IMG/VR virus record: IMGVR_UViG_3300045988_025481
Coordinates: 1-37,707 of that record
From: a virus
Direction: 5' to 3' (one strand)
DNA: 37,707 bases
In this document: positions 1 to 24,394 of the stretch, piece by piece
Position numbering within the stretch: the first letter of the stretch is position 1
Layout: the number at the start of each line of letters is the position of its first letter
Translations under genes and position numbers: made by a program
The notes under the pieces: generated by a model
Databases searched by the model: none
Told to the model about the DNA's origin: nothing
The model's input: the letters and a program-made list of their open reading frames with translations, nothing else

Positions 1-25
1 GTAAAGAACTTTTAAAGAAAACAGA

Positions 26-208
26 CTATTTTTTTTCAGTTTGCAAATCTTTTCTGATTAATTCTTTGATATACCCCATTTTAGAATCAACTTCATCTAA
101 TTTCTTTATAATGTCTGTGTCTGTATTGTAGTTCAAGCGAACACAAATTGTCTTTGTGTTCGCCTTGATGTACTTTTCATTAGCTTTTAATTTTGCTTCT
201 GAAGCCAT
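26..208 (-). CDS. small ribbon-helix-helix (Arc/CopG-like) DNA-binding protein, tentative
   Basis: Within ORF 26..229. The best start is ATG 208, preceded by TAGGAGGAA plus 5 nt (MASEAKLKANEKYIK...). A basic N-terminal strand followed by helices resembles RHH proteins. Last gene of the small post-lysis operon. Confidence 0.45.
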   Translation of the reverse strand: MASEAKLKANEKYIKANTKTICVRLNYNTDTDIIKKLDEVDSKMGYIKELIRKDLQTEKK

Positions 209-219
209 TAACATTCCTC

Positions 220-513
220 CTAATACCATTCATCATCATCGTCAAATTCATTTGTAAATTCAAATGTATGTCCATTATCTTCAAATGTTGCATATTCATA
301 CTGCCCAACATATAGCTTATCAAGCTTCAAATTTCGTACAAATCTAAGCTCACAACTATTTCGATACGTGTCAACTAATTCAGAAATATTGAATATTTCA
401 TATCCACAATCAATAGCTTTTTGTTCATCTTCCATGTCCTCAATTATATAAATTTTATGACATCCATCATATGCAAATTTATTTCCAACTACTTCTACAT
501 TATTAATTTTCAT
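220..513 (-). CDS. hypothetical protein with an acidic C-terminus (DDDDEWY)
   Basis: 97-aa ORF with RBS TAAGGAGGG 7 nt upstream of the ATG. No family recognised. Confidence 0.5.
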   Translation of the reverse strand: MKINNVEVVGNKFAYDGCHKIYIIEDMEDEQKAIDCGYEIFNISELVDTYRNSCELRFVRNLKLDKLYVGQYEYATFEDNGHTFEFTNEFDDDDEWY

Positions 514-534
514 TTCTTGCGCCCTCCTTATATA

Positions 535-624
535 TTACTTAACAAACCATACAATCAATATTGCAATTAATAATACAATAATAATTGCGTCTAAAATCAT
601 TTTAATTTTTTCTAGCTTTTCCAT
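535..624 (-). CDS. 29-aa hydrophobic single-TM peptide (MEKLEKIKMILDAIIIVLLIAILIVWFVK)
   Basis: Hand-translated; too short for the ORF track. AAAGGAGG lies 8 nt upstream of the ATG. Confidence 0.4.
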   Translation of the reverse strand: MEKLEKIKMILDAIIIVLLIAILIVWFVK

Positions 625-670
625 TTATTGTTCCTCCTTTTATGTGGTACAATCTAAGTGAGCTAGGGAA

Positions 671-790
671 TCAATTCCCTAAGCTCTTGATAAATGTTAT
701 TAATGCAACGATAAGCTCAATAACATCTTTAGCAATCTCTAGGTAGAATTTCACGTTGTCTACTTTGCGATTGCTTTTTTTGTGTGCCAT
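671..790 (-). CDS. 39-aa small protein (MAHKKSNRKVDNVKFYLEIAKDVIELIVALITFIKSLGN)
   Basis: Hand-translated. GAAAGGAG lies 8 nt upstream of the ATG. Followed by a TAGGGAA/TTCCCTA hairpin. Confidence 0.35.
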   Translation of the reverse strand: MAHKKSNRKVDNVKFYLEIAKDVIELIVALITFIKSLGN

Positions 791-838
791 ATTTAAACTC
801 CTTTCTTTTAATTCCTTGCCTTATCTGACCACATATAT

Positions 839-867
839 AGTATAACATACATGTATATACATGTAAA
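839..867 (-). promoter_or_regulatory. sigma70-like promoter (TTTACA-N17-TATACT) overlapped by an 18-bp perfect palindrome (848..865)
   Basis: On the minus strand, TTTACA is at 867..862 and TATACT at 844..839. TACATGTATATACATGTA fills the spacer and is a likely operator. Confidence 0.4.
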
Positions 868-880
868 GAACTTTTTTAGG

Positions 881-911
881 AAAATAAAAAAAAGCCCTGA
901 TAAACAGAGCT
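881..911 (-). terminator. rho-independent terminator downstream of the endolysin
   Basis: Minus strand reads AGCTCTG-TTTAT-CAGGGCT (one mismatch) followed by T8. Confidence 0.6.
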
Positions 912-987
912 TCCATAGATTAACATCAAAATGAATATTAACCTCAAACCTATTCAATTATAACATACATACACATAGGCTTTAATA

Positions 988-2730
988 TTATTTAAATAGT
1001 TTCGAAACCTTTTTTAATATTTTTAAAATCAAAGCGATAATACGATTGATTCCATTTACATTAATTTTATCATTTGAATCGCTTGTATCGTTTGAATCAT
1101 CTTTTTTAGGATTGCTCAACTCATCTAAATATTGTGATACTAATAATTTAAAATCATCCCAACCTTCATCAAGAATCTTGTGTGGGCAATATTTATAATT
1201 ACCACTTGTCATCTTGTAATCTTGGTGCTTTTTTAAGCAATCAATACTCAATCCATATTTATACAATAGCTCAGATGCAAGTCTTGCTCCATTCTCTCTA
1301 GCTTTTTTCCATTCATCTTGTGAATCGTTATCATTATCCTTGGCGATTTCGATTTGGATACCTGTTCTATTACCAAATCCATATGCTCCATCACCTGTTG
1401 CAAATGCATTACGATTCAATGGTAATGATTCGATGATGTCTTTATCATCCACCGAGAAATGCCAAGATTTATATTCCTTCGAATTGTGCAATGCATTATT
1501 TAAAGCTCTAGCAGTTCCATTTGGTGTTGCCGAGTTATGGATGATAATCGCTTGAGGTTTATTCATTAAATAAGGGCATTTGTAAGGATACAATCTCTTA
1601 TTAATTAAATCAACGATAATACCGTCATGTTCAAGAACTTCATCAGTTTTATCCTTTCCTTCGTAATCTCCTTCATTAACCGATGTAAATCCATTTGTAT
1701 TTACAATGGGTTTCGAAGGGGTTGTGGGTGTTTCGGTAGGTGTTGTCGTTGGCTTTGAGTCGTTCGGAGCAGTAAATGTTGCCCACATTTGCGTTCTATC
1801 CTCTGTTGCAGATACGGCAACGAATACTTTTTTATCTCCGTCTTTGCCTACTACATATCTGTGCCCATTTCCTACATACTTCCAATAATAGCGAATTGAA
1901 TCACCAGTGTTGTATGTTTTGCAAACATCACCTTTTGGCGAATCGTAACGTGCTCTCACACCGTCTACCGTGAATGTAGCGATACCATCTTCTTGTGTTA
2001 GGGTAATTGATTCGGTAGGTTTTTGTTCTTCAATAGAAGTAAATGTTGCCCACGGTTCTGTACCTTGCTCATTTCCATTCACTGCCACGAAATAACGATA
2101 GCTTGCACCATCTGCTTGATGTTCAACCCATGAAATATATCTGTGCCCATTTCCTACATATTTTTGCGTGTATTCTAGCTTTGCCCCTTTTTTCAATGTT
2201 TCTGCTACGATTCCATTTGGTGTATCTCTTCTTTTCTGAATGTCATACATTAATGTAGCATAAGCGTGTTCATCTATTAATTTAGATTCTATATAATCGC
2301 TATTTTGAGTTTGATTTACTAAACATTTAGGTCTAAAGCCTGTATCATATGTGGCACTGTATGGAAATTTACATAAATTAAATGCTCCTCCTGCACCACC
2401 TTGATTTTGTCCTAAGAACCAACCATATTTTCCATCAATATCAGAATCAAAAATTGCAATATGCGAATATGGTGTAACTCCTGGCACTACTTTGAACACG
2501 ACAATATCACCGGGTTGATATACAGATACTTCAACACTGTTTTCCAAGATTCCATTTGTCTTTCTGTATAGCCAAATGTCTTTAGCGTATTTACTGACTG
2601 TACAACTAATTCTTGGGTATCCTAGTTTCTCATACCAATACATTGCACCATCCCAACATTGAGGGCCGTAAGCTCCATCAATGTCAATTCTTTTGCCTAA
2701 TACATCGTTTTTAAAACTTTGATAATCTAT
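988..2730 (-). CDS. endolysin: CHAP peptidase, two SH3b-like repeats, Thr/Pro linker, Amidase_2 (N-acetylmuramoyl-L-alanine amidase), cationic amphipathic C-terminal helix
   Basis: ORF 988..2643 extended in frame to ATA 2730..2728 (GGAGG plus 9 nt). The CHAP catalytic motif GAYGPQCWD lies upstream of the first ATG, and the CHAP His is in YSHIAIF. Repeats carry KYVGNGHRY...WATFT twice. Amidase_2 motifs are IIIHNSAT...WHFSVDD...GIQIEIA...YCPHK. Confidence 0.85.
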   Translation of the reverse strand: MDYQSFKNDVLGKRIDIDGAYGPQCWDGAMYWYEKLGYPRISCTVSKYAKDIWLYRKTNGILENSVEVSVYQPGDIVVFKVVPGVTPYSHIAIFDSDIDGKYGWFLGQNQGGAGGAFNLCKFPYSATYDTGFRPKCLVNQTQNSDYIESKLIDEHAYATLMYDIQKRRDTPNGIVAETLKKGAKLEYTQKYVGNGHRYISWVEHQADGASYRYFVAVNGNEQGTEPWATFTSIEEQKPTESITLTQEDGIATFTVDGVRARYDSPKGDVCKTYNTGDSIRYYWKYVGNGHRYVVGKDGDKKVFVAVSATEDRTQMWATFTAPNDSKPTTTPTETPTTPSKPIVNTNGFTSVNEGDYEGKDKTDEVLEHDGIIVDLINKRLYPYKCPYLMNKPQAIIIHNSATPNGTARALNNALHNSKEYKSWHFSVDDKDIIESLPLNRNAFATGDGAYGFGNRTGIQIEIAKDNDNDSQDEWKKARENGARLASELLYKYGLSIDCLKKHQDYKMTSGNYKYCPHKILDEGWDDFKLLVSQYLDELSNPKKDDSNDTSDSNDKINVNGINRIIALILKILKKVSKLFK

Positions 2731-2777
2731 TAAAAAAAACCTCCTTTATATGCCAATTATAGCACATAAAAGAGGTT
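2730..2777 (-). terminator. 16-bp stem terminator hairpin plus T8; its 3' arm contains the endolysin SD and its loop contains TGCTATAAT
   Basis: Minus strand reads AACCTCTTTTATGTGC-TATAATTG-GCATATAAAGGAGGTT-TTTTTTTA. It starts 6 nt after the stop of gene 2783..3220. Confidence 0.6.
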
Positions 2778-2782
2778 TTTTA

Positions 2783-3220
2783 TCACTGATATACAGAGAA
2801 CATTTCTCTTAATTTATCTCTTACCATTTCTCTTTCTTCTTGAAAGTCGCTAGACGTTTTCATTTCTTCTAAGATTCCATACATAGCACTTAAAAAGGCT
2901 TCTAACTCACGAATTGAATTTTGTTTATCTAGTTCATTGTTGCCTTTTCGATATTCTTTTTTAGCTTCTATGTATTTCCTAAAATGAGAATTCATTAATG
3001 CGATATTATCATCAATTTCCGTTCCTTCAATATTTGTATCATTTGTTTTTAATGCGTTTATAGCAGTTCTTCCATCACTCATAGCTAGTATTGTATCAAT
3101 GTCTTTGATATTGTCTAAAGCTTGGCTCATGACTTTAAAATCTAAATCATTGTATCCTCTTTCTAATCCTCTCATCGCTTCCGTTAAGAGGTCTAGATTT
3201 CTTTTTCTAACCTCTTGCAT
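2783..3220 (-). CDS. hypothetical helical protein
   Basis: 145-aa ORF; TAGGTG lies 5 nt upstream of the ATG. Confidence 0.55.
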   Translation of the reverse strand: MQEVRKRNLDLLTEAMRGLERGYNDLDFKVMSQALDNIKDIDTILAMSDGRTAINALKTNDTNIEGTEIDDNIALMNSHFRKYIEAKKEYRKGNNELDKQNSIRELEAFLSAMYGILEEMKTSSDFQEEREMVRDKLREMFSVYQ

Positions 3221-3227
3221 GATACAC

Positions 3228-3647
3228 CTACGCTAACTTCTTAATGATGATATTTGCATTTTGAACAGATAAATCTAAGCCACTATTATTACCTAGCGTA
3301 ATTGTGTAAGACGCACCACAAGGTACTTGAATCAATGTAACTCCACTTACATTTCCATATGCGCTTGCAGTAGCTACATTATATAGAGATTCTGTTCCTC
3401 CTACTGCTTCTCCATTCTGTTCTAATTCTAAAGAAGCAACTCCTACCGTTGTGCTTGTGATGTCTGCCGTATATTCTACTTCATAGATTCCTTGTTTCGT
3501 TAATGTAAACAGCCCACTTCCTACATCATGAGCGAGCCAACCTTTACATGCACATTGGCATGATTTTGTTCTTACTCTGTCTGTTGGGAATAATACATTT
3601 TGTCCATTTGCTACTGTCTGAATTGCCGTTGCTATACTATTAATCAT
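3228..3647 (-). CDS. hypothetical beta-rich protein, possibly a BclA-C-terminal/C1q-like jelly roll (weak)
   Basis: 139-aa ORF with TAGGAGGAAAAGAAA upstream of the ATG. The alternating beta-strand pattern and CQCAC motif resemble that fold from memory only. Confidence 0.5.
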   Translation of the reverse strand: MINSIATAIQTVANGQNVLFPTDRVRTKSCQCACKGWLAHDVGSGLFTLTKQGIYEVEYTADITSTTVGVASLELEQNGEAVGGTESLYNVATASAYGNVSGVTLIQVPCGASYTITLGNNSGLDLSVQNANIIIKKLA

Positions 3648-3660
3648 TTTCTTTTCCTCC

Positions 3661-3694
3661 TATATAAAATAAATGGGTAGCCTTTCGACTACCC
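3661..3694 (-). terminator. terminator-like hairpin
   Basis: Minus strand reads GGGTAG-TCGAAAGG-CTACCC followed by ATTTATTTTAT. Confidence 0.4.
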
Positions 3695-3729
3695 TATAAT
3701 CCAAAGGCTATTGCCTAATCTCTTTCGAG

Positions 3730-4341
3730 CTAGATTTGGTTACATCCACAACCTGTCATATTATACGCATAATAAGGTGAGCAAGTAAGATATGCAGGTT
3801 TTGGCGTTGGTTGCAATGTATTGATAATATTTGCAGATTGTGCCTGTTGGCTCAATTGGAAGTTTGCAGTTAATAAATCTCTGTCTCTATCTGCTAATTT
3901 ATCACGCAATTCTTGCATTGTGTTAGCATTGATTAATGCTCTTGTTGCTTCGCCTTCTGAGTGAATTGCAGTGGTAATATCACACGTGTTTTTAAAACTT
4001 TGTGCGTTTACACCATCAATCGCTCTTTGTGTTGCACAACAACATTCTTGGTTTTGTTGACCTAGATTCTGCAAACCTAATTGTGTCGTGTATCGGCTTT
4101 CTAGAATGTCTCTTGAATTTTGGAAACCTTGGCTAGATACATTTTGATTTGTATTGAACAAATCACGCTTAATAAATTCTTGATTCATTAATTCGTCATT
4201 CTGTAGGTTGCCATTGTTACCCCAATTTCCACCAAATAGTAAAAATAACAGGATAATCCAAATCCAATATCCTCCACCAAATTCATTGTTGTTTCTGTCT
4301 GCTAAATCGTACATTGGTTGAATACCATTCATGCTTTCCAT
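3730..4341 (-). CDS. membrane-anchored Q/N- and Cys-rich protein, function unknown
   Basis: 203-aa ORF with a strong RBS (AAAGGAGGAAATATAA-ATG). One TM segment (YWIWIILLFLLFGG). Cys clusters ECCCA and CGCNQI. Confidence 0.6.
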   Translation of the reverse strand: MESMNGIQPMYDLADRNNNEFGGGYWIWIILLFLLFGGNWGNNGNLQNDELMNQEFIKRDLFNTNQNVSSQGFQNSRDILESRYTTQLGLQNLGQQNQECCCATQRAIDGVNAQSFKNTCDITTAIHSEGEATRALINANTMQELRDKLADRDRDLLTANFQLSQQAQSANIINTLQPTPKPAYLTCSPYYAYNMTGCGCNQI

Positions 4342-4365
4342 TTATATTTCCTCCTTTCAACGCAA

Positions 4366-4575
4366 TTAGCGTTTTAGCCCATATTGACTAGCCACATTTT
4401 CAAATTGTTGTTTTTGTTGTGGCGTTAAATTCCCCATCATATTATTCAATAATACTTTGGGATTCTGTCCACTTTGCATTAATTGTTGTACTTGATTAAA
4501 TGCTTGTGGATTTCTTTGTTGTAACATACCCAACAACATTTGTTGAGGGTTCATCATATTCATTAAAGGATTCAC
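4366..4575 (-). CDS. Q/M/N-rich small protein
   Basis: 69-aa ORF with a GTG start after AAGGAGC plus 7 nt. GTGA overlaps the upstream stop. Confidence 0.5.
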   Translation of the reverse strand: MNPLMNMMNPQQMLLGMLQQRNPQAFNQVQQLMQSGQNPKVLLNNMMGNLTPQQKQQFENVASQYGLKR

Positions 4576-5006
4576 GCTTTAAGCTCCTTCCTAGGCGTTT
4601 CTTTATCTACCTTTGTATTTATATTACTTCCGTTTGTTAGACCTAATATCATAGCTTCTAGCTTGTCTAAGCGTTGTTCTATGTTGTCTTTCTTCGGCTC
4701 TGTTTCTTCTTGGAATCTGTATTTCTTGAAACTGCCGTCTAAAGACTTCATGTAGAATACTGAATCATTTCTATCTAGCATAATACTAGGCAGACCGTTC
4801 ACCATCATATTCCTTGCTTCTTGTTCATTATTAACCCACTTACCATTAAAATCATTCAATGCCATGTTAGGTGTGATTTGGTTATTGATGTTAATAGGTG
4901 GAATATTCGCCATCTGTTGAATCGTCTGTAACTGTGATTCAATCATTTGCTTTTGATTCATTAAATTGTTAATTCTGTCATTAATTGGATTATACATTTC
5001 GCTCAC
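4572..5006 (-). CDS. hypothetical protein; first gene of the cassette
   Basis: 144-aa ORF. Start is GTG 5006 or ATG 4997, with AGAGGTG/GGAG upstream. Confidence 0.55.
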   Translation of the reverse strand: MSEMYNPINDRINNLMNQKQMIESQLQTIQQMANIPPININNQITPNMALNDFNGKWVNNEQEARNMMVNGLPSIMLDRNDSVFYMKSLDGSFKKYRFQEETEPKKDNIEQRLDKLEAMILGLTNGSNINTKVDKETPRKELKA

Positions 5007-5073
5007 CTCTTTACACTCCTAATTATATTCATAGGCAGTTTCAGTTTGTTTTCACATTAATGTCAAGTAAATG

Positions 5074-5101
5074 CCAAAAAAAAGAGGTTTTTCAACCTCT
5101 T
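5074..5101 (-). terminator. rho-independent terminator (bidirectional shape)
   Basis: Minus strand reads AAGAGGTT-GAAA-AACCTCTT followed by T8. It overlaps the stop of gene 5100..5384. Confidence 0.7.
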
Positions 5102-5384
5102 AATTCTTGTCTAGATACGTTTCTTTTTCACTGCTTTTTCTTGGTGGTAAAACTGCGCTATACTTTTCTACTTCATCATACTTGTTCTTTATTCTTTTGA
5201 TGATTCTATTCACACTAGAAACACTCATATTTAATCTGTCGGCTTGTTCTCTGACTGTCCATCCGTATATTCTTGTTCTTAGAATCATTTCTTCATCTTT
5301 AGTTAATAAAGCTAGATTAATAAATTCTTCAAGAATAATCTTATTCCAAGGTACTTGATTCGTCATTGTCTTGTTCTTCGTCAA
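5100..5384 (-). CDS. sigma-70 region-4-like HTH regulator
   Basis: 94-aa ORF. EEMILRTRIYGWTVREQADRLNMSVSSVNRIIKRIKNKY resembles a region-4 HTH. It overlaps the holin 3' end by 44 nt. Confidence 0.5.
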   Translation of the reverse strand: MTKNKTMTNQVPWNKIILEEFINLALLTKDEEMILRTRIYGWTVREQADRLNMSVSSVNRIIKRIKNKYDEVEKYSAVLPPRKSSEKETYLDKN

Positions 5385-5856
5385 TAAGTTTATCTGCTAC
5401 TTCTAATCCTTTAGTTAATACTTTTGGTACATTGTAACCACATTGTAATAAATTCTCCATAACGCTACGAGATTCATTAATACATAGCGAAGCTAACACA
5501 AACCAACCTAGCAATGTAGACACATGGAAATCAATCCCTAGAATTTCTCCTACTTCTACTAAAAATGCACTGAATGTGAACGCAACCACAATCATAATCC
5601 AATAGCCTAGCTTTTTTAAAACACCGGTCCAACCTTTGTTGCTATTGATTTTATGAGCAATAGCCGACTTCATGCACCCTGTAATATAATCCACTACATT
5701 CATAAATAAGAAGAACGCAAATAAATACCAATGCTCGCCTAATACGTATGTTAATACGGCTACGGCAACACCACACATTGCATTAATCTTATCTAGAAAA
5801 AACATACTTCTTGCTATTTGCTTAAATCCTCCATTTTTATTTTCTATTAAATTCAC
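5341..5856 (-). CDS. holin (TcdE/phage_holin_4-type, toxin secretion/phage lysis family)
   Basis: Multi-TM ORF with DYITG...KK...INESRSVMEN motifs typical of that family. GTG 5856 sits inside the SD; ATA 5847 lies 8 nt after GGAG and is the better-placed start. Confidence 0.75.
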   Translation of the reverse strand: MNLIENKNGGFKQIARSMFFLDKINAMCGVAVAVLTYVLGEHWYLFAFFLFMNVVDYITGCMKSAIAHKINSNKGWTGVLKKLGYWIMIVVAFTFSAFLVEVGEILGIDFHVSTLLGWFVLASLCINESRSVMENLLQCGYNVPKVLTKGLEVADKLIDEEQDNDESSTLE

Positions 5857-5859
5857 TCC

Positions 5860-6873
5860 TTACATGATTTTTAAATTATCAACCTCTAATTCTAAGGTTC
5901 TATATCCACTCTTAATAACTTCAAATATATTTCTAATTCTTGCAGTTATTACTAGTCCAATTTCTGCTACTATAACATCAACTTTATCACCTAAATCATA
6001 GTCCACCTTATACTCGTATGAATCCGTATTTAAATTAAAATTCACATTCTCTTTAATTTGATAATCTGCTAGTTTTTCAATTCCTTTTTGAATTAACACC
6101 TTCTTATATTCATCAAGTGTTGTACCTTCTCCCATACGCTCAGAACGTGCGTCTACATACAATTTCTTGATTCTTTCATTCTTATCTTTTCTAGCGTCAT
6201 ATTCAACGTAAATACGCTCTTCGCCTTGCCCCTCTCCACAAATGATTGCATAGTTCTTGTATTTACTAGAATCAATCATAACGTCCGGTTCTTCAACATT
6301 TCTGAATTCTGTTGAAAAGGTAACAAAATTGTTTCCGTCTGTATTGTTTTGAGTCAAATCACGTCCTCGATACAATACAAATGTGAACGTACTTGATACA
6401 TAGTCATATTCTATGCGAAAAGACAATTCTAACGGATATAACATCTCATAAAGCTTCTTATCAAGGCTTGCTCCTGTTTCTTGTAAGTCTACGGTATCTG
6501 TAATGGATTCATCATATCTATACCCCATTTCCCATGAACAATACCTATCTAATAATTTCTTTACGACATCAACAATATTTCCACTGCTTGAGAATGTAGG
6601 ATAAATACAATCATCTGCTAGAATCTTTTCAAAGAAAGAACCTCTAAGCAACATTTGTTTAGTGTTGTTTGAAACCGAATAATGCGGTATTTCTACAATC
6701 CCTAACTCTTTATCCTCAGTAGAATAGATATATTGGATGTCGCTTGAATACTGCCCTATATCAATATAAATCTCGAAATCTCCTGTTTCATAATATCTCC
6801 GATTCCACTGCACGTTATAAGGTGCTAGATGAGTTACGATATTGAAATCTTTATCTAATCCAAAGTAAGACAT
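5860..6873 (-). CDS. tail tip/baseplate protein (siphovirus Gp37-like family)
   Basis: 337-aa ORF directly after Dit. The N-terminus (W.RRYYETGDFEIYID) resembles ReqiPepy6 Gp37-like proteins. Confidence 0.55.
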   Translation of the reverse strand: MSYFGLDKDFNIVTHLAPYNVQWNRRYYETGDFEIYIDIGQYSSDIQYIYSTEDKELGIVEIPHYSVSNNTKQMLLRGSFFEKILADDCIYPTFSSSGNIVDVVKKLLDRYCSWEMGYRYDESITDTVDLQETGASLDKKLYEMLYPLELSFRIEYDYVSSTFTFVLYRGRDLTQNNTDGNNFVTFSTEFRNVEEPDVMIDSSKYKNYAIICGEGQGEERIYVEYDARKDKNERIKKLYVDARSERMGEGTTLDEYKKVLIQKGIEKLADYQIKENVNFNLNTDSYEYKVDYDLGDKVDVIVAEIGLVITARIRNIFEVIKSGYRTLELEVDNLKIM

Positions 6874-6874
6874 A

Positions 6875-7747
6875 CTATATACCTAAATACCTTTCGTTGT
6901 AGTAAACAGTGCAAGCTAGGTTCGTATCTCCATTATCTGCCGTATATCCTATGATATTCTCACCTAAATTAATAGTCATATCATTGAATGATGAAGTTCT
7001 ATCAACTTTGCCAATACAATTCACGCCATTCTTCTTTATTGAAATAGGTTCAGAAACTAAATCGATTTCTAATACATCACCATTGTGTAACGTATCTAAT
7101 ACACGAATATATTTATCTTTATTGAATAGTTTCGGATTTGTCACATCTCCAAATGCTTCAATGACGGCCCTGCAATATGTTTCTGTATCACCTTGATTAT
7201 CAATATAAATTTCTCTAGCGAATGTGAATGTTCCAAAGTTTACGCCTGTTTCCGGTATTTCGAAATTAAATGCTAAACCACCGCCGATTTCTGCAATATT
7301 CTTTGCAAAATCATCAAATGAAAGTAATAAAGGTTGCGTGCATAGAATCGTAAAATTAAGCTCTAAATCTTTGTAGATGTTAACAGTAGGCAAGCTATAC
7401 GCATATAAACGACCTCTGCAATACTTCTTTTCTCCCATGTACTCAACTATCACATCAAATACATGAGAATATTGGAAGAAGCGCCGTAGCTTCTCCCTTT
7501 CTTCTCTTTTTTCTTCTAGTGAACCTTTAAAGATAGCTTTCACGCTTCTTTCTTTCGTTGGAATACGTGAACCGATTAATCTAGCACCATTTCCAAATGC
7601 GTTGTCTTGCGTAGTGTATGAAGGTGCTACATAATCAAATCCATCTAAGCCATCATTTGAAGGAATCCTCCATCTTTTTTGGTTGTCAATTTCAAATTCT
7701 GTGCCATCATCCCTACGGACAATAACTCTTACTTTATTGATGTCTAT
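6875..7747 (-). CDS. distal tail protein (Dit)
   Basis: ORF 6875..7543 extends 68 codons upstream with no ATG/GTG/TTG, to ATA 7747..7745 (GGAGG plus 9 nt). The ATA overlaps the TMP stop as ATAG. Position directly after the TMP supports the call. Confidence 0.75.
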   Translation of the reverse strand: MDINKVRVIVRRDDGTEFEIDNQKRWRIPSNDGLDGFDYVAPSYTTQDNAFGNGARLIGSRIPTKERSVKAIFKGSLEEKREEREKLRRFFQYSHVFDVIVEYMGEKKYCRGRLYAYSLPTVNIYKDLELNFTILCTQPLLLSFDDFAKNIAEIGGGLAFNFEIPETGVNFGTFTFAREIYIDNQGDTETYCRAVIEAFGDVTNPKLFNKDKYIRVLDTLHNGDVLEIDLVSEPISIKKNGVNCIGKVDRTSSFNDMTINLGENIIGYTADNGDTNLACTVYYNERYLGI

Positions 7748-10323
7748 TGAATTACACCTCCATATCCATATCTTGCTTGCATACGTAACATTCTAGCGAT
7801 TTCATCCGGACTTTGAGCTTTATTGTAGAAGTTGATAGTCTGTCCATTGTTATTCGTTGTAACACTAGGCATAATTTGGACCATATCTTTTGCTACGGCA
7901 CGAATCCACGCTTTATTCTTTTCTAAAGGAACGACTGCTTCTGCTCCATTACCTTCTAACAATCCAATTTGACCGCGTTTCAATACACCACCACGCTCTA
8001 GTTTTGGAATCTTTCCAATGCTAACTCCGGGAATCTTATTGATGATACTGATTGCACCATTAATTCCACCGATAACACCATTTACCATTCCTTTTACACT
8101 TCCAACTAATGATTGCACTGCTCCTTCAATTCCATTGAATACACCATCTACAAAGCCTTTTAAACCGCTCCATGCATTCTGTATTCCATGTAGAACATTT
8201 GAAATCTTATTTCCTACTTTATCCATCACGATTTTTACTTTTGACCACACATCGTCAAATACATTTGAAATAGTATCTTTTACACCTGCGAAGCTAGAAT
8301 CAATTATATCAATCACATTTTGTACAATATTTCCAATATTATCGAATACACCTTTGATAACATTCCATATGCTTTCAAATATGCTTGAAATTGACTGGAA
8401 TAAACCACTTGCAAATTGAATGATTGCAGATACTACCTCACTTATCTTGCCCCAAATATTCGTTGCAACAGTTACGATTAAAGACCAAATATTAGATATG
8501 ATAGATGCAATGATTTGAACAATCGGCATGATGATAGACAATATTGTAGAAATTGCACTTCCAACATATGAAATCACCATACTAATGAACGAAATGATTC
8601 CACTTACAACACTTCCAACTATCGAAAGAATAGATGTGATTACAGGAATTAATCCAACTATGTTTGAAATCACCATCTTTATAATCGCTAGGATAGGTGG
8701 ACCAACCACGCTCAGAATCTTTTGTGCTTGGTTTACGATATTTTGAATAGCTTCAATAATCTTAGCTAATATATCTTTTGCAATAGGTTCAAGTGCAATC
8801 TTCATTTTGTCGATTGCGTCTTTTACCTTATCAAAAGCAGGAGCTAACACTTCAGAAACTTGGCTTGTGATTTTTGTGATTCCACTTGTATCAATCTTAC
8901 TTAATACATTTGAAATTACATCACCAACTTTAGCAAATCCTTGTTGAATACCTTGTATCGCTACTGTAATTAGTCCAATAATACCGGAAAGAATAGGAGT
9001 AATCGCTTCGCCTATTGGAGTAAATGAGTTTAAGAATGTACGCCCTAAGCCACTTAAAGCGTTCTTTAAACCACCATTTGCAATATCTTTAACCTTTTCC
9101 ATTGCTCCTTGTACATCTTTATATTTATTCCCTACTGTCGTTAAGGACTGAATGAATCCGGCGTTGAAATCTTCTCCCATTGTACCGAAAGCCGTTGCAG
9201 ATTTATTCAATTTTTCTTGTTCATTTGTAGTCTTTGAAATATCTTCTACAATCGCATTCACAACATCTTTTTGAGTTGCTCTTCCTTCTTGCCATGCCTT
9301 AAATACATCTTGTGTTTTGGTATCAAAACTATCTAAAGCTCCTTCAATAGTTCCATCAACTAACCTTGTGGTAACTTCGTTAATTGCGTCATTTACTTTG
9401 TCAAGGTTATAAGCTCCACCGTCTAAACCATTCTGCATTAATTGGAAGTATTCTTCTGCCGAATATCCTGCTTGCTTGAATTTACCGGAGTATTCTGAAA
9501 TGTTGTCGCCTAACTCATCTGATTTGTTTAAACCATTCTGAGCACCTGTAGCCATAAGGTCGAAAGCTTCTTGAGAAGTAATTCCGAACTGCTTCATTAA
9601 TTGTTGAGCACCTCTAAGAGTTTCGTTTTCGTCCATACCGAATGTGTCTCTTAATGTCAATAAATCCTCAGTTACATTCTTTAAATCAACATCACTTATG
9701 CCTTGCATTTGTTGCTTGACTCTGCCCATCATATCGGCAACATCTGAAACATCTTCACCGAAATTATTAGACCAAACATCACGAGCAATGCTTTTAAATT
9801 TGCTCATTTCATTGCTTGAAGCACCTGTTTGAGCTTGGAATTTAGCCATAGCGTCATCTAGCTCAACGGCTTGGTTAACACCTGTCTTAATTGCTAATGC
9901 CATCCCACCGATAGCTCCTGCTACGGCAGTAACGCCTACAACACCTCCAACGCCTAAACCTGTTAAGGTTTCAGTGATTGCAGAAGCTTCCGGACTAATA
10001 TTCTGAATCTTTCCTAATAGTCCATCAAATCCACCTTGAATTGATTCTAATGCACTGTTTCCTACTTGCTTAAATACATCAAATTTAGAACCTGTTTCTT
10101 GTGTTTCTGTTTGTGTATTTCTTTGCTCTTCGTTTAAATCTTTAAGTTTATCTTTAATCTTTGGCGGTGCTTTTGAACCATCAGAACCTAGCTTATCAAT
10201 CGCTTTTGAAGTATCTTTGATAGCATTTGTGGCTTCACTTGATACAACCTTTACAGATTTAATTCCATTCTCTAGACCACTTGTATCAATCTTTGTATCA
10301 AACTTTAATGTTCCGTCTGATAT
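7744..10323 (-). CDS. tape measure protein
   Basis: ORF 7744..9903 extends 140 codons upstream in frame with no canonical start. The first codon after an in-frame TGA is ATA 10323..10321, with AAAGGAGGTG upstream. Long helical/hydrophobic repeats are typical of TMPs. Confidence 0.85.
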   Translation of the reverse strand: MSDGTLKFDTKIDTSGLENGIKSVKVVSSEATNAIKDTSKAIDKLGSDGSKAPPKIKDKLKDLNEEQRNTQTETQETGSKFDVFKQVGNSALESIQGGFDGLLGKIQNISPEASAITETLTGLGVGGVVGVTAVAGAIGGMALAIKTGVNQAVELDDAMAKFQAQTGASSNEMSKFKSIARDVWSNNFGEDVSDVADMMGRVKQQMQGISDVDLKNVTEDLLTLRDTFGMDENETLRGAQQLMKQFGITSQEAFDLMATGAQNGLNKSDELGDNISEYSGKFKQAGYSAEEYFQLMQNGLDGGAYNLDKVNDAINEVTTRLVDGTIEGALDSFDTKTQDVFKAWQEGRATQKDVVNAIVEDISKTTNEQEKLNKSATAFGTMGEDFNAGFIQSLTTVGNKYKDVQGAMEKVKDIANGGLKNALSGLGRTFLNSFTPIGEAITPILSGIIGLITVAIQGIQQGFAKVGDVISNVLSKIDTSGITKITSQVSEVLAPAFDKVKDAIDKMKIALEPIAKDILAKIIEAIQNIVNQAQKILSVVGPPILAIIKMVISNIVGLIPVITSILSIVGSVVSGIISFISMVISYVGSAISTILSIIMPIVQIIASIISNIWSLIVTVATNIWGKISEVVSAIIQFASGLFQSISSIFESIWNVIKGVFDNIGNIVQNVIDIIDSSFAGVKDTISNVFDDVWSKVKIVMDKVGNKISNVLHGIQNAWSGLKGFVDGVFNGIEGAVQSLVGSVKGMVNGVIGGINGAISIINKIPGVSIGKIPKLERGGVLKRGQIGLLEGNGAEAVVPLEKNKAWIRAVAKDMVQIMPSVTTNNNGQTINFYNKAQSPDEIARMLRMQARYGYGGVIQ

Positions 10324-22942: not shown

Positions 22943-23094
22943 TTTAATCCCCCCCTATAACAATCATATTGATTCAATTGCTTTTTAAGCCTTTGTAATC
23001 TTTTTCTTAAATCTCTTTTTCTATATTCTGATGTCGTGTTTTCTAATTCTTCTTCAACGCTTTTCATTTGGCGTAAATGTTCTTCTCTAGACAT
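22939..23094 (-). CDS. 51-aa coiled-coil ORF ending at the G7 tract
   Basis: Hand-translated: MSREEHLRQMKSVEEELENTTSEYRKRDLRKRLQRLKKQLNQYDCYRGGLK. It overlaps the radical SAM stop. It could fuse to TerS by a -1 shift on the G7 run. Confidence 0.35.
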   Translation of the reverse strand: MSREEHLRQMKSVEEELENTTSEYRKRDLRKRLQRLKKQLNQYDCYRGGLK

Positions 23095-24394
23095 GTCTTG
23101 CTTCTTCTGTTTCAAGTTCTGTAATCTCCTCTGTTCTTTTTAAGAATGTTACTGAATTATCATATTCGTAAATGATGTCATTGTTTTCATCAAATCCTAC
23201 AGGCTTTAGAACCTTTTCAAAAATCTTATAAGGTGATTGTCCTGCTTTTGGTGAATTCCATAAATAATGAAGATAATCTTTCATTGTCATTCCTTTGAAT
23301 TTTGCTCTATTCTCTGATGAATTAGTGTTGAACCCAATAGCTTTATTAAATTGAAAATCTAAGAAATACATATCCTTTTCAATATCTTTCCAATGTACTC
23401 TTCCATGTTTCTTTGCAATTTGTAAAGCGCCACTAAAATTTCCTCTTGAGTAATCCCAATTCTTGTCTAATGCGCAACAACAACAATTATTTGAGCATTC
23501 TTTAAAGTGTGCGTCGGATACATAGAATCGCATACCTAATTCATCACATAGCTCTTTCATCTTTTGAATGTATTTAGCCTTTACTTTTCTGTTAAGTCTT
23601 AAATATCCACTTCCATTTGAATGTTTTCTATAGAAATCTACAATATCAAATCCTGCACATTCACTAATCACATCATAATGCTCCTTAGCTTGTTTAATAG
23701 AACGCATTTCTAAGCAAAAGAACTCCGTAGTAACTGCCGTTGCTCCTGCCTTTTTGGCTTCTCTAATTAAATCTAGATAGGTTTTATCTGATACTCCTAC
23801 AATAAATGGACGCAATCTTAAAGTTGCACCACCTTTAGATAGTTCAGTATATTTTTTCATTGCTTCAAGTCTTTTTCTTGGACTTGGCACACCTACTTCG
23901 ATTTTTCTTGCGTCCTCTTCATCTAGCGTGATGATACTAAACTTAACATTCCAATTGTCTGCGCCTTTGAACAATTCTTGATATTTAGGGTCATTAAATA
24001 CCCATGCCGATTTCGTACTAAAACAAATAGGATAGTTAATAGATTTCAAATACTTAAGCATTTCATAGGTTTTGCCATATTTCTTTTCGTATCCGTCGAA
24101 TTGGTCTGATAATCCACCATATTGAATAGGACGTCTGTCTTTAATGTATTTATAGAATTGTGATTTTGTATCTTCTCCACTGAAAATCTTTTTGCATTTC
24201 TCAACATTGATACATTTCACATCTTTATTAAGATATGCTTCTTTACTTGCACCAATACCTCTTTGATATTGGCTAAAACAATAAACGCACCCAAATGAAC
24301 AATTGGAATATGTATCAAATGTCACCGGTAATGAGCAATCTGCGATTTCTCCTGTCCATCTCGGTGATTGATATGTCTCACTGATTTTATTCAC
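23087..24394 (-). CDS. radical SAM enzyme (SplB/COG1533-like), substrate unknown
   Basis: 435-aa ORF with the CX3CX2C motif CSFGCVYC near the N-terminus and a second Cys cluster CSNNCCCC. GTG start after GGAGGATATAAG. Confidence 0.75.
   Translation of the reverse strand: MNKISETYQSPRWTGEIADCSLPVTFDTYSNCSFGCVYCFSQYQRGIGASKEAYLNKDVKCINVEKCKKIFSGEDTKSQFYKYIKDRRPIQYGGLSDQFDGYEKKYGKTYEMLKYLKSINYPICFSTKSAWVFNDPKYQELFKGADNWNVKFSIITLDEEDARKIEVGVPSPRKRLEAMKKYTELSKGGATLRLRPFIVGVSDKTYLDLIREAKKAGATAVTTEFFCLEMRSIKQAKEHYDVISECAGFDIVDFYRKHSNGSGYLRLNRKVKAKYIQKMKELCDELGMRFYVSDAHFKECSNNCCCCALDKNWDYSRGNFSGALQIAKKHGRVHWKDIEKDMYFLDFQFNKAIGFNTNSSENRAKFKGMTMKDYLHYLWNSPKAGQSPYKIFEKVLKPVGFDENNDIIYEYDNSVTFLKRTEEITELETEEARHV

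Follow-up and report, generated by a model that had tools for sequence, protein, structure and literature searches.

A candidate self-contained late-expression unit with a C1q-like BclA_C protein in phages of anaerobic gut microbes

Several described systems come close to the phage gene module analyzed here. GerE is a 74-aa stand-alone HTH protein of the LuxR/sigma region 4 (r4) class, and Alt of the lactococcal phage TP901-1 activates late genes by way of phased direct repeats at a promoter that has no -35 element. Morons are autonomous promoter-gene-terminator insertions in phage late regions, such as bor/lom of lambda and gp15 of HK97, and dec of phage L is a transferable decoration gene. 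The PaLoc is arranged as tcdR, which encodes a complete sigma factor, the holin gene tcdE, the toxin genes and the endolysin remnant tcdL, and type 10 secretion depends on holins and endolysins. C1q/TNF-like knobs on coiled-coil shafts are a common fiber design. A further parallel is offered by the filaments that BclA and F-BclA of the Bacillus cereus group make up in the exosporium nap and at endospore appendage tips (PF18573; PDB 1WCK and 9H38), 9H38 being the C1q-like domain that sits as a trimer at the tip of the F-ENA appendage (10.1101/2025.02.11.637640). ENA subunits are reported to self-assemble in the cytoplasm of E. coli, and those of S- and L-ENA to have Cys-containing N-terminal connectors (10.1101/2025.02.11.637640).

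The window studied here is a stretch of viral DNA of 37,707 nt (IMG/VR record IMGVR_UViG_3300045988_025481), and it carries at positions 2783..5384 of its minus strand a six-gene unit with the order HTH–A–B–C–D–E (Table 1). The original prediction, made from the letters of this stretch, had singled out these six ORFs as a distinct unit; all of them are present on the minus strand where it had placed them, and the unit is borne out by about 100 fetched loci of related and other phages that conserve the gene order at varied genome positions. Among the carriers are prophages of Holdemanella, Solobacterium, Waltera, Megasphaera, and Phascolarctobacterium, phages of C. perfringens and Butyrivibrio, crAss-like and other Bacteroides phages, and predicted viruses of methanogens, and the sampled carriers are of animal gut origin (human, lemur, woodrat, pig, deer, and rumen). 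In all, the unit probably occurs with its genes in this order in thousands of phages of gut anaerobes. Homologs are found in Sipho-, Podo-, and Myoviridae-labeled viruses as well as crAss-like phages, with monoderm and diderm hosts alike, and the module thus appears to be independent of tail type and envelope type. Within the window lineage all six genes are under purifying selection (dN/dS of 0.01-0.15), while the cassette is deleted in some relatives and occurs as in-frame deletion and fusion variants in others that are otherwise intact, so it appears to be dispensable. We tentatively propose that the module is a horizontally mobile, self-contained late-expression unit of phages that infect strictly anaerobic gut microbes, a proposal that we make jointly with the regulation and the fibril described below.

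Table 1. Coordinates of the module and its neighbors in the window
Feature	Coordinates	Strand	Basis or remark
Endolysin (context), 580 aa	988..2730	-	N-terminal CHAP-like domain with QCWD, C-terminal Amidase_2
Cassette-ending hairpin	2736..2779	-	20-22 bp stem then T8
Gene E, 145-aa helical protein	2783..3220	-	weak match to phrog_28802
Gene D, stand-alone C1q/TNF-like BclA_C domain, 139 aa	3228..3647	-	PF18573
Internal C/D hairpin, attenuator or partial terminator	3675..3694	-	8-bp stem and T-rich tail
Gene C, 203-aa cysteine-rich coiled coil	3730..4341	-	most conserved module component
Gene B, 69-aa Met/Gln-rich helical protein	4366..4575	-	position conserved in 90/100 loci
Gene A	4572..5006	-	Q/N-rich N-terminal helix, small four-stranded beta domain, C-terminal coiled coil
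TATAAT -10 element of cassette promoter	5022..5027	-	sequence scan
Phased direct repeats, presumed operator of regulator	5037..5076	-	read from sequence
Intrinsic-terminator-like hairpin ending late operon	5082..5101	-	8-bp stem then T8
Module regulator, stand-alone sigma-70 region-4/GerE-type HTH	5100..5384	-	Pfam and family profile
Holin (context, outside module)	5341..5856	-	Phage_holin_4_1 3.2e-31; TIGR01593 3.8e-20

In size and fold class the regulator fits the GerE/Alt-type activators. It matches HTH_23 of Pfam at 27 bits, above the cut-off, and Sigma70_r4_2 at 24.3 bits (cut-off 25.7), and its family profile matches region 4 of sigma-F at 2.4e-7 and GerE at 9e-7. Its start is most likely ATG 5366, giving 88 aa, the ORF length of related loci; TTG 5384 would give 94 aa. 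That it belongs to the cassette, as first claimed, is confirmed by an r4-type HTH directly upstream in 82 of 100 loci (HMM), and distant lineages, including L107 and L111, also have an HTH by inspection, Pfam or a broader profile. The label "sigma-like" holds for the region-4-type HTH but not beyond it, as the protein is without region 2 and is not a sigma factor but probably an activator-type DNA binder. Domain and family searches placed it by sequence in none of the ArpU, RinA, and Alt families, and its operator binding is predicted. In contrast to GerE/Alt-type activators, it has its own gene at the late operon's end, and it would control a single short accessory unit instead of that operon as a whole.

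The presumed operator is the only such site in the window and consists of the units TGGCATT (5070..5076), TGACATT (5059..5065), TGAAAAC (5048..5054), and TGAAACT (5037..5043), whose starts are 11 nt apart; the TGrCATT pair occurs nowhere else in the window when up to one mismatch is allowed. Five lineages, whose repeats are unrelated in sequence, have direct repeats exactly 11 bp apart, the nearest of which starts 27-28 bp upstream of a TATAAT -10 box, and L107 has four 11-bp units. This box is kept in all intergenic regions of the window lineage, the L047 lineage, and L010. A TTGACA does lie at 5061..5066, as reported earlier, but the TATAAT was placed one base off and the spacer is 33 nt, not 32; no -35 hexamer is found at 16-18 nt from the TATAAT. 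Just as with GerE/Alt-type activators, the repeats follow helical phasing and overlap the -35 region, and the promoter has only a good -10 box. Phased repeats at a constant distance from the -10 box, together with the missing -35 element, therefore support control by the adjacent regulator, and the fixed geometry in five lineages upholds the idea of a promoter that is atypical for sigma-70 and depends on the neighboring protein. We infer that the regulator binds and activates this promoter. In L111, where the repeats are directly beside the RBS, repression rather than activation is conceivable, while L005 has no HTH and a consensus sigma-A promoter (TTGACT-17-TATAAT).

The hairpins that had been called in the window were all reproduced, and the region 500..7000 contains seven terminator-like sites versus 2.3 expected. 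The one that ends the late operon (dG -9.8 kcal/mol) overlaps the stop codon of the regulator gene, and a hairpin with a T run occupies the equivalent site in L011, L016, L018, L019, L081, and L111. Just upstream of the hairpin between C and D there are two smaller ones, reaching to about 3730 (z = -3.9 for 3660..3745), and a C/D hairpin with a T-tract but different stem sequences is also present in the L045, L010, L081, and L011 lineages. The cassette-ending hairpin (dG -28 kcal/mol, z = -8) is conserved in 19 loci of the window lineage; its loop contains a conserved extended -10 element (TGCTATAAT, 2756..2764), and its 3' arm contains the RBS of the endolysin gene (AAAGGAGG, 2740..2747).

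Bracketed by terminator-like hairpins and equipped with its own promoter, the module resembles morons, and as with morons its position varies between conserved phage genes and it is present, absent, or partly deleted among close relatives. It lies before the holin gene in L001 and L047, after the lysis genes in L011, L015, L016, L109, and Ceridwen, between Phage_min_cap2 and the scaffold/MCP genes in L107 and L111, far from the lysis genes, and among RecT, YqaJ, and resolvase genes in Bacteroides phage C3_41T2LP. The observation that it splits the holin from the endolysin is thus true of the window but accidental to this lineage. Ahead of gene A, a promoter-like region and a terminator-like hairpin recur in all lineages examined. 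Cotranscription as ordinary late genes is seen in a single lineage, L109, whose cassette starts 22 nt after the endolysin gene and has no regulator; otherwise, the cassette is a separate unit. This arrangement in L109 and the overlap of the regulator ORF with the 3' end of the holin gene, the last recognizable gene of the late operon, support late expression. Unlike morons, the module comprises six to eight genes, has an activator of its own and an attenuator inside, and is conserved between phages of different host phyla; it seems to be turned on late during lytic growth and not from a repressed prophage. The absence of replication and integration genes makes the small nested mobile element that was also suggested unlikely.

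The protein with the clearest relatives is D, and the cautious description of it as possibly C1q/BclA-C-like was right. It scores 38.2 bits against BclA_C, at the 38-bit cut-off, and matches phrog_20016; its 109 homologs of about 138 aa were already annotated with PF18573, and the family profile matches solved C1q-like domains, the best being 9H38, the F-BclA C-terminal domain, over its full length at 1.5e-5, with BclA at 0.02-0.1. D is a true BclA_C domain; A, B, and E match nothing characterized. Like BclA, D lacks a signal peptide and would have to be assembled inside the producing cell, in its cytoplasm. Its cysteines form an N-terminal cluster (SCQCAC) with a second conserved Cys (VPCG), and this Cys-rich connector recalls the coupling logic of S- and L-ENA (10.1101/2025.02.11.637640). 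Domain searches found no DUF3992 or DUF4183 ENA subunit in the module. In contrast to BclA and F-BclA, D is a bare domain of about 139 aa without a collagen-like GXX stalk or an exosporium leader, a different protein, the coiled-coil C, would provide the stalk, and the genes are borne by phages, with relatives in Bacteroides phages. The host of the window phage, Holdemanella, does not sporulate, which excludes a spore or exosporium role. The head position appears exchangeable between lineages, being filled by a protein of the BclA_C type or by another small Cys-rich beta protein.

Gene C has 5,256 homologs, no match in Pfam or the PDB, and a counterpart in phrog_16490, to which that database assigns no function. 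The protein begins with a GIxPxY(D/N)(L/M) peptide and then a short hydrophobic segment of aromatic character flanked by glycine runs, continues with a Q/N-rich helical region in which the alignment shows an invariant CCC followed by C120, H127, E129, and E131, and ends with PxPAYxTCSPY and a Gly/Cys tail; its AF2 model is all-helical but poor (pLDDT 49). It had been called TM anchored and Cys-rich, and although it is Cys-rich, a membrane-spanning helix is not established because the apolar core between the glycines comprises only 10-13 residues and the Kyte-Doolittle 19-residue maximum is low (1.5 in the window protein, 0.95-2.0 across the family). Gene A most likely starts at ATG 4997, so that the Q/N-rich protein reported with 144 aa has 141 aa, as in its homologs. 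No Pfam domain was found among 55 homologs of A, and its AF2 model (pLDDT 72) has no significant PDB fold match but many uncharacterized matches in BFVD from Sipho-, Podo-, and Myoviridae-labeled gut viruses. The GTG start of gene B overlaps the stop codon of gene A by 4 nt, and domain and family searches returned no match for B. In 75 of 100 loci, and also in CPD1, L107, and L111, the cassette ends with a homolog of E, which has no PDB match. AGGAGG-type or AGAGG Shine-Dalgarno sequences precede A to D, and only a weak one (TAGGTG) precedes E. By inspection, none of the five proteins A to E has a signal-peptide-like N-terminal region, and no cassette component has a lipobox or sortase motif.

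The makeup of these proteins, none of which has a characterized function, suggests a stalk-and-head fibril that is built inside the dying cell, and a late-made, secretion-independent fibril of this kind is our tentative reading. The regulator, whose gene is coupled to that of the holin, would be expressed with the last part of the late operon, would bind the repeats just downstream of its own gene, and would activate the promoter in a class-II-like geometry in which the nearest repeat covers about -39 to -33. From this promoter A to E would be expressed, with the attenuator keeping the levels of D and E below those of A, B, and C. C could then form an oligomeric stalk as a Cys-rich Q/N coiled coil and D an exchangeable, trimeric head, the two perhaps being joined via their cysteine clusters, while A, B, and E might be adaptors, chaperones, or assembly factors. 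Assembly would take place in the cytoplasm without secretion machinery, as for exosporium BclA filaments and endospore appendages, and lysis would release the product. Sequence and comparison establish the genes, their synteny, the autonomy of the unit, the promoter architecture, and the folds assigned to D and the HTH. The fibril and its final location are speculative: it would most likely end up on the virion as an accessory that serves adhesion or protection, or on membrane remnants, held by the short hydrophobic segment of C. Two observations fit less well, as an attenuator leads one to expect less D than C, which suits a 1:1 stalk-and-head complex poorly, and the location among recombination and replication genes in C3_41T2LP suggests earlier expression, which sits less easily with a virion accessory. 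Our literature search found no virion proteome, transcriptome, or image for any carrier phage.

We consider it unlikely, though worth weighing, that the proteins form an intracellular membrane complex, with C embedded in the membrane, that acts on the infected cell by tuning lysis as an accessory of the holin or endolysin, or by excluding superinfection through a block on the DNA entry of other phages. The module is usually 0-3 kb from holin or endolysin genes, and in the window it lies between the two, followed by an endolysin gene that has an unusual ATA start codon and an RBS buried in the cassette terminator hairpin; the hydrophobic segment of C and the apparent dispensability of the cassette would fit as well, and the early-type region in a virulent Bacteroides phage suits exclusion. 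However, closeness to lysis genes weighs little because accessory genes of Firmicute siphophages are as a rule inserted at the end of the late region, and in L107 and L111 the module is placed between head genes. The short apolar core of C and the lack of a PADLOC match for the cassette also speak against such a complex. To our knowledge, known exclusion and antiholin functions reside in single small proteins, unlike five to eight abundant proteins of structural type with a C1q-like trimer.

The order in the window of a TcdE-family holin, a small sigma-related regulator, signal-less cargo, and an endolysin mirrors tcdR/tcdE/toxins/tcdL, and it is this likeness, along with the toxin-secretion family of the holin (TIGR01593) and the gut origin of the sampled carriers, that brings up cargo leaving through holin lesions or lysis in the style of type 10 secretion and acting outside through the C1q-like domain, on other bacteria or the animal host. 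This seems quite improbable to us, as a TcdE-type holin is not a constant neighbor of the module (in other lineages there is an r1t-type, an LL-H-type or no adjacent holin), and domain and family searches found no toxin or enzyme domain in any component. The regulator consists of region 4 only, unlike TcdR. The idea moreover overlaps with the fibril, since both would be released at lysis and only the target differs.

A tail fiber or receptor-binding module, supplying an adsorption device that seems to be missing here, is highly doubtful. The tail genes of the window (TMP, Dit, and a 337-aa Sipho_Gp37-like protein, then the holin) do end without an obvious receptor-binding protein, a C1q/TNF-like knob on a coiled-coil shaft fits the fiber design, and crAss homologs of C are labeled "viral fiber" or "spike protein", but these labels are database annotations for which we found no experimental or family-level support. 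L001 and L047 have full sets of baseplate and fiber genes in addition to the module. The module is found across all tail morphotypes, lies among recombination genes or between head genes in some phages, and has internal deletions in otherwise intact relatives that have the same minimal tail module. C also varies far less between phages of different host phyla than is normal for receptor-binding proteins.

Our findings make it very improbable that the module is a lysogenic-conversion cassette remodeling the surface or envelope of the lysogen, the main idea of the original prediction, since translation of the regulator gene is coupled to that of the holin gene where the late operon ends. The moron-like anatomy near the prophage end, the variable location, the surface-protein-like fold of D, and the sigma-A promoter of L005 would suit it, but the promoter in the window has no -35 element, motifs for export or surface attachment are absent as described above, L109 cotranscribes the module with the endolysin, and plaque-isolated, presumably virulent phages (C3_41T2LP, crAss-like) carry it. 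A surface or envelope assembly in a broader sense, as also proposed, is possible.

The cassettes of some relatives contain an extra ferritin-like member (profile versus ferritins 4.4e-6, full length), and together with this optional partner the invariant H, E, E and CCC of C could point to metal chemistry instead. Least probable of all, however, is a redox or metal-handling module that protects the infected anaerobe or the progeny from oxidative damage, for although B is Met-rich, C and D are Cys-rich, and the identified hosts are all strict anaerobes, the window and most lineages lack the ferritin-like gene, the alignment of its product has no evident canonical ExxH ferroxidase motif, A to E matched no known redox or metal-binding family in domain and family searches, and the C1q-like trimer would be left unexplained.

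The neighboring endolysin gene starts with a conserved ATA codon (2728..2730), and the N terminus of its product aligns with the MNYNDFK N terminus of the L001 lysin. A 580-aa protein at NCBI, WP_353954342.1, falls into the same 90%-identity cluster as this endolysin.

The six-gene cassette of the window, an HTH regulator gene followed by genes A to E, is on solid grounds an accessory module of several proteins, mobile, late and non-secreted, with regulation of its own. It sits in a temperate siphovirus-type genome of 37.7 kb (GC about 34%) that carries nearly all of its genes on the minus strand, with the genes for an integrase and a Cro/CI-type repressor at its right end. The layout described in the original prediction, an HTH gene and a terminator followed by five packed genes with hairpins, is accurate apart from small corrections (see the table), and the strong ribosome-binding sites proposed for the five genes were found for A to D (AGGAGG-type or AGAGG), E having a weak one (TAGGTG). 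Terminator-like sites in the cassette stretch number 7, against 2.3 expected, and the hairpin that closes the cassette is extreme (dG -28 kcal/mol, z = -8). The five genes are indeed without a recognisable phage function, as none of the proteins A to E matched a known defence, lysis-accessory or tail family. A defence system of the kinds in PADLOC-DB was likewise not found, with no match for A to E and a weak, generic HTH as the sole match of the regulator. Elsewhere in the window, the end of the tail module (5860..7543) is without a recognisable receptor-binding or fibre gene ahead of the holin, a minimal Dit/Gp37 tail arrangement common to the relatives L103-L106, and a 435-aa ORF in the early/middle region (23087..24394, minus strand) gave a weak Radical_SAM match (5.8e-4, below cut-off).

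Coordinates of the cassette and its neighbours, and of related features in other loci
Feature	Genome or locus	Position	Strand	Remark
Tape-measure protein	window	9903..7744	minus	
Dit	window	7543..6875	minus	222 aa
Sipho_Gp37-like protein	window	6873..5860	minus	337 aa
TcdE-family holin	window	5856..5341	minus	
HTH gene	window	5384/5366..5100	minus	
Hairpin then T8	window	5101..5082	minus	
Gene A	window	5006/4997..4572	minus	
Gene B	window	4575..4366	minus	
Gene C	window	4341..3730	minus	
Gene D	window	3647..3228	minus	
Gene E	window	3220..2783	minus	
Hairpin, 20-22 bp, then T8	window	2779..2736	minus	endolysin gene next
Ferritin-like gene	L107	7433..8032		
Ferritin-like gene	L111	7437..8021		
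Ferritin-like gene	L109	7421..7966		
Ferritin-like gene	L019 (CPD1)	8334..8861		
Deletion/fusion	L103	6001..6492		
Deletion/fusion	L104-L106	6001..6597		
Deletion/fusion				proteins P0063-65, P0196, P0227
Promoter repeats	L047 lineage			GGGTATT/GAGTATT/GAGTATT
Promoter repeats	L010			GAGTAT/TAGTAT/TAGTAT
Promoter repeats	L081			GATACTA x2
Promoter repeats	L011			GTTTATCA x2

A check for the cassette in related phages and at other loci found the module recurring in many lineages and at varied positions. Protein C has 5256 homologues in a large protein collection, mostly on phage-sized contigs of 35-50 kb and none of them with a Pfam domain, and public metagenomes contain more than 5000 sequence clusters of this one component; the homologue counts for D and A are 109 and 55. 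About 113 loci were fetched, and in the first 100, which the gene-content counts cover, iterated HMMs detected C in all 100, D in 91, B in 90, A in 84, the HTH protein in 82 and E in 75, always in the order HTH-A-B-C-D-E and in nearly all loci with a gap of 89-102 nt between HTH and A. In the window's own lineage, dN/dS lies between 0.01 and 0.15 for all six genes. HTH, A, B and C make up the core of the module. Occupants vary at two positions: at D, a BclA_C protein or another, small Cys-rich beta protein; at the end, a helical protein of the E type (g145) or the DUF7841 type, two types that show no detectable relationship (hhalign probability 0.1). Some lineages have an extra helical protein of ~77 aa or an extra ferritin-like protein of ~175-199 aa, the latter absent from the window. 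A profile of the ferritin-like proteins from the loci L107, L111 and L109 and from phage CPD1 (CPD1_043) matches the T. maritima ferritin 1Z4A at 4.4e-6, profile positions 7-174 aligning with 4-153 of 164, as well as about 20 further ferritins; this full-length match points to membership of the ~190-aa protein in the ferritin-like superfamily, and neither Pfam nor PHROGs recognised it.

Holdemanella is the prophage host for the window's lineage and for the L001 lineage, and further prophage hosts are Solobacterium, Waltera, Phascolarctobacterium, Megasphaera and unnamed Bacilli. Distant collinear modules were found in cultured C. perfringens phages (CPD1_036-043), in Butyrivibrio virus Ceridwen and Bacteroides uniformis phage C3_41T2LP, and in many crAss-like phages and viruses assigned to Methanomassiliicoccales. 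Phages with hosts from at least three bacterial phyla have the six genes in this one order. C homologues with the same architecture (phrog_16490) are present in Caudoviricetes sp. vir215 (L101, 4878..5759) and in vir335, gut viruses with a putative host in the archaeal order Methanomassiliicoccales, and the vir215 gene has as neighbours the reverse transcriptase of a DGR and a repeat surface protein of Flg_new-like type. No match to C was found in the plasmids of PLSDB by tblastn, nor to window 1..9000 in the INPHARED phages by megablast.

Placement of the module between holin and endolysin is limited to the window's lineage, about 24 loci. It lies between tail-fibre genes and holin in L001 and L047, at the prophage end after the lysis genes in L011, L015 and L016, likewise after the lysis genes in Ceridwen, directly after the endolysin (22-nt gap, no HTH gene) in L109, with Phage_min_cap2 on one side and the scaffold and major capsid genes on the other in two lineages (L107/108 and L111/112), and among RecT, YqaJ and resolvase genes in Bacteroides phage C3_41T2LP. 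Since other lineages place the module elsewhere, the splitting of holin from endolysin to which the original prediction drew attention is incidental and is not to be over-interpreted. With the exception of L109, every lineage examined has a terminator-like hairpin and a promoter-like region ahead of gene A. The module thus has a moron's own promoter and terminator, its insertion between conserved genes and its variable presence or position among related phages; with its regulator encoded in the late operon, expression from a repressed prophage is doubtful. Close relatives carry several independent in-frame deletions inside the cassette, with HTH::D, A::C, A::D and C::D fusions as products, in prophages that are otherwise intact, and the module is therefore accessory and dispensable at least for prophage maintenance. 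The suggestion of a nested mobile element did not hold, as the cassette contains no integrase, replication or packaging gene.

Homing-endonuclease genes are associated with gene C in three unrelated lineages: C is split by a GIY-YIG-like ORF in L016 (8510..10330), an HNH ORF separates B from C in CPD1 (L019, 6017..6667), and in C3_41T2LP (L102, 4270..4890), C has an I-HmuI-like gene immediately upstream. Their presence fits a highly conserved target common to phages co-infecting one cell. In L109, genes for an arylsulfotransferase-like protein and an MFS transporter (1755..4248), which may be auxiliary metabolic genes, lie just upstream of the block of holin, endolysin and cassette.

The regulator had been called sigma-like, and a sigma factor of the sigma-70 family it is not: the protein has only 88-94 aa and lacks region 2, which serves core binding and -10 recognition, and the sigma models of Pfam and NCBIfam match it by their region-4 part only (e.g., TIGR02937, 107-160 of 165). 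It scores 27 bits with HTH_23, above the cut-off, and 24.3 bits with Sigma70_r4_2 against a cut-off of 25.7 bits, and a profile of 11 lineage representatives finds sigmaF region 4 (2.4e-7), VpsT (2.4e-7) and GerE (9.1e-7). By these matches, it is a stand-alone HTH of the region-4 or LuxR-GerE type that fills essentially the whole protein. After the HTH stop and the hairpin, the window carries the repeats TGGCATT, TGACATT, TGAAAAC and TGAAACT, one starting every 11 nt, and 3' of them a TATAAT that lacks a -35 box at 16-18 nt; at up to 1 mismatch, the TGrCATT pair has no second occurrence in the window. Other repeats take this place in other lineages. In five lineages (that of the window, L047, L010, L081 and L011) the 11-bp spacing is exact and the distance from the start of the nearest repeat to the -10 box is 27-28 bp. 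Four 11-bp TTTTAACTCG units are present in L107 and three AGTCAT units in L111. We infer from the fixed geometry and the differing repeats over the -35 region that this has the look of an activator-dependent (class-II-like) promoter.

The HTH ORF overlaps the 3' end of the holin gene and lies within the late operon, and very late expression of the cassette is therefore likely: the late operon would make the HTH protein, which would in turn switch on the cassette. Lineages without an adjacent HTH gene each have another solution. In L005 (6950..7105), a consensus sigma-A promoter (TTGACT-17-TATAAT) is followed by a leader of ~110 nt ending in a terminator-like hairpin, which could be an attenuator or an unfamiliar riboregulator; in cr116_1, a Bacteroides-type TAnnTTTG motif precedes the cassette; and in L109, the cassette is predicted to be co-transcribed with the endolysin. 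Within the cassette, a hairpin with a T-rich tail stands between C and D at the same position in five lineages. Because this position is kept while the stem sequences differ, the hairpin argues for a conserved attenuator that would keep A, B and C above D and E. Upstream of it, the C-D spacer (window 3695..3730) holds two more small hairpins and a TTAGG...CCTTTGGATT motif, and the C-D spacers of L045 and L081 match it, with the motif kept and the stems differing but still paired. A search of window 2600..5500 against Rfam gave nothing near a gathering score.

Protein D is a bare BclA_C (C1q/TNF-like) domain, in agreement with the C1q/BclA-C-like character proposed for the 139-aa protein. It scores 38.2 bits with BclA_C (PF18573) against a cut-off of 38 bits, residues 3-139 aligning with 5-128 of the 128 model positions, and most of its full-length homologues (~138 aa) carry PF18573. 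The D profile finds 9H38 at 1.5e-5 (5-136 against 18-147 of 148), with BclA entries at 0.02-0.13 and ExsF/BxpB similarly weak. According to its depositors, 9H38 shows the C-terminal domain of F-BclA as a trimer, F-BclA being the fibrillum at the tip of F-type endospore appendages (10.1101/2025.02.11.637640). Conserved Cys clusters lie near the N-terminus of D and in a late strand, and collagen repeats are absent.

Protein C is predicted to be all-helical at low confidence (AF2 pLDDT 49, for which reason the model was left out of the fold search). Its invariant residues are a CCC and, beyond it, C, H, E and E; it also has a PxPAYxTCSPY motif and ends in a tail of Gly and Cys. The transmembrane anchor ascribed to C is unproven because the hydrophobic segment is short, with 10-13 apolar residues between glycine runs, and its hydropathy is low, with a Kyte-Doolittle 19-residue maximum below 1.6 in most members. 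A fusion of B to the N-terminus of the Bacteroides-phage C, which would fix the topology of C, found no support (B HMM ~0 bits). In protein A (AF2 pLDDT 72), a small beta domain is combined with a Q/N-rich helix and a coiled coil; its model had no significant fold match in the PDB (best, polo-box PB3, E = 0.04, TM 0.19) and in BFVD matched by Foldseek only uncharacterised proteins of gut viruses with the labels Sipho-, Podo- and Myoviridae. B, a peptide rich in Met and Gln, and E are both helical. Profiles of C, A, E and the DUF7841-type E gave no meaningful match among PDB sequences, and inspection of all five proteins revealed no signal peptide, lipobox or sorting motif.

We tentatively favor, as plausible though short of probable, a stalk-and-head fibril that would be produced shortly before lysis and would leave the cell together with the progeny, probably bound to virions or to membrane remnants. 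We do so because a Cys-rich coiled coil and an exchangeable trimeric head, both with Cys-rich termini, are combined with cytoplasmic assembly and with independence from tail morphotype and envelope type. The abundant Cys-rich coiled coil would form the stalk, and the exchangeable trimeric C1q-type head would be of the kind found at the tips of spore fibrils. A bolder proposal, which taken with all its parts we consider unlikely, is a horizontally moving, secretion-independent 'nap' system in phages of non-sporulating, strictly anaerobic gut microbes, its carriers comprising Bacillota, Negativicutes, Bacteroidota (including crAss-like phages) and possibly methanogen viruses. Such a nap would consist of a dedicated activator, a cysteine-cross-linked coiled-coil stalk and exchangeable heads of C1q-like or other type; assembled in the cytoplasm in the last minutes of infection, it would coat virions or lysis debris, and the coat would aggregate, anchor or shield progeny in the gut.

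As an alternative to the fibril, an intracellular function at the level of the membrane, in lysis control or exclusion, is less likely, with a small chance of being correct. A cargo released PaLoc-style, by holin-dependent (type 10) secretion, is improbable: linkage to holin or endolysin is found in some lineages only; in L107 and L111 the module has head genes on both sides, and in C3_41T2LP it belongs to a recombination region. It is quite improbable that the module is a missing receptor-binding device or tail fibre, given its variable placement, its deletion variants and its occurrence in all morphotypes, and lysogenic conversion, with the regulator in a late operon, we regard as very improbable. 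Redox or metal handling has hardly any claim.

Among known systems, BclA-like glycoproteins of the exosporium or of ENA tips have a collagen-like stalk of GXX repeats, an N-terminal docking motif and a spore-forming host, whereas D has no GXX repeats and Holdemanella is non-sporulating. A spore-surface, exosporium or spore-coat role is excluded by this host and by relatives that infect Negativicutes and Bacteroides, homologous modules being present in phages of Megasphaera, Phascolarctobacterium and Bacteroides. No cassette protein matched the ENA subunit families DUF3992 (PF13157) and DUF4183 (PF13799) at E values up to 0.1, and the alternative D-position proteins, considered as DUF3992-type ENA, had no such Pfam match either and a profile that found no ENA chain in the PDB. 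Spanins of the Rz/Rz1 type, in which an i-spanin with an N-terminal TM helix and a periplasmic coiled coil pairs with a lipoprotein of the outer membrane in diderm hosts, were rejected, as there is no lipobox protein and no lipoprotein partner, the Erysipelotrichaceae host is monoderm and the hydrophobic segment spans 10-13 residues.

No published description of the six-gene module was found in the literature on BclA/C1q prophage proteins, DUF7841, the crAss 'spike protein' and C. perfringens virion proteomes. All PHROG matches of module proteins are of 'unknown function', and in the databases each component is either 'hypothetical' or named by misleading guesses that contradict each other ('spike protein', 'phosphoprotein', 'terminase small subunit'). 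The regulator type, the C1q-like fold and the 'moron' category are known; the six-gene system matches nothing characterised. It may represent a new kind of phage accessory system and may prove to be a variant of virion decoration. If the nap proposal is true, phages would have their own equivalent of the fibrils of exosporium and endospore appendages, and accessory structures, virion-associated or virion-extrinsic, would gain a new class. Whatever its function, the module would, in the gut phages sampled here, be a widely shared accessory trait beside DGRs and Ig-like decorations, and there is a possible evolutionary link from phage genes to the C1q-like fibrils of spore surfaces. The compact set of activator, operator and promoter, with its lineage-specific specificities, could be of use in anaerobes as orthogonal switches for late expression. 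The question is directly testable because the module is present in three phage-host pairs in culture, those of the C. perfringens CPD1-like phages, Butyrivibrio virus Ceridwen and Bacteroides phage C3_41T2LP.

A last observation concerns the junction of cassette and endolysin (window 2728..2779, minus strand), where the endolysin start is a conserved non-canonical ATA, replaced by TTG in one relative. The endolysin ribosome-binding site is part of the 3' arm of the 22-bp terminator hairpin that closes the cassette, the T8 run forms the spacer from this site to the start, and the hairpin loop contains a conserved perfect extended -10 box, TGCTATAAT (2756..2764). This arrangement suggests that read-through transcripts would hide the ribosome-binding site and that a transcript begun inside the hairpin would expose it, a possible lysis-timing device.
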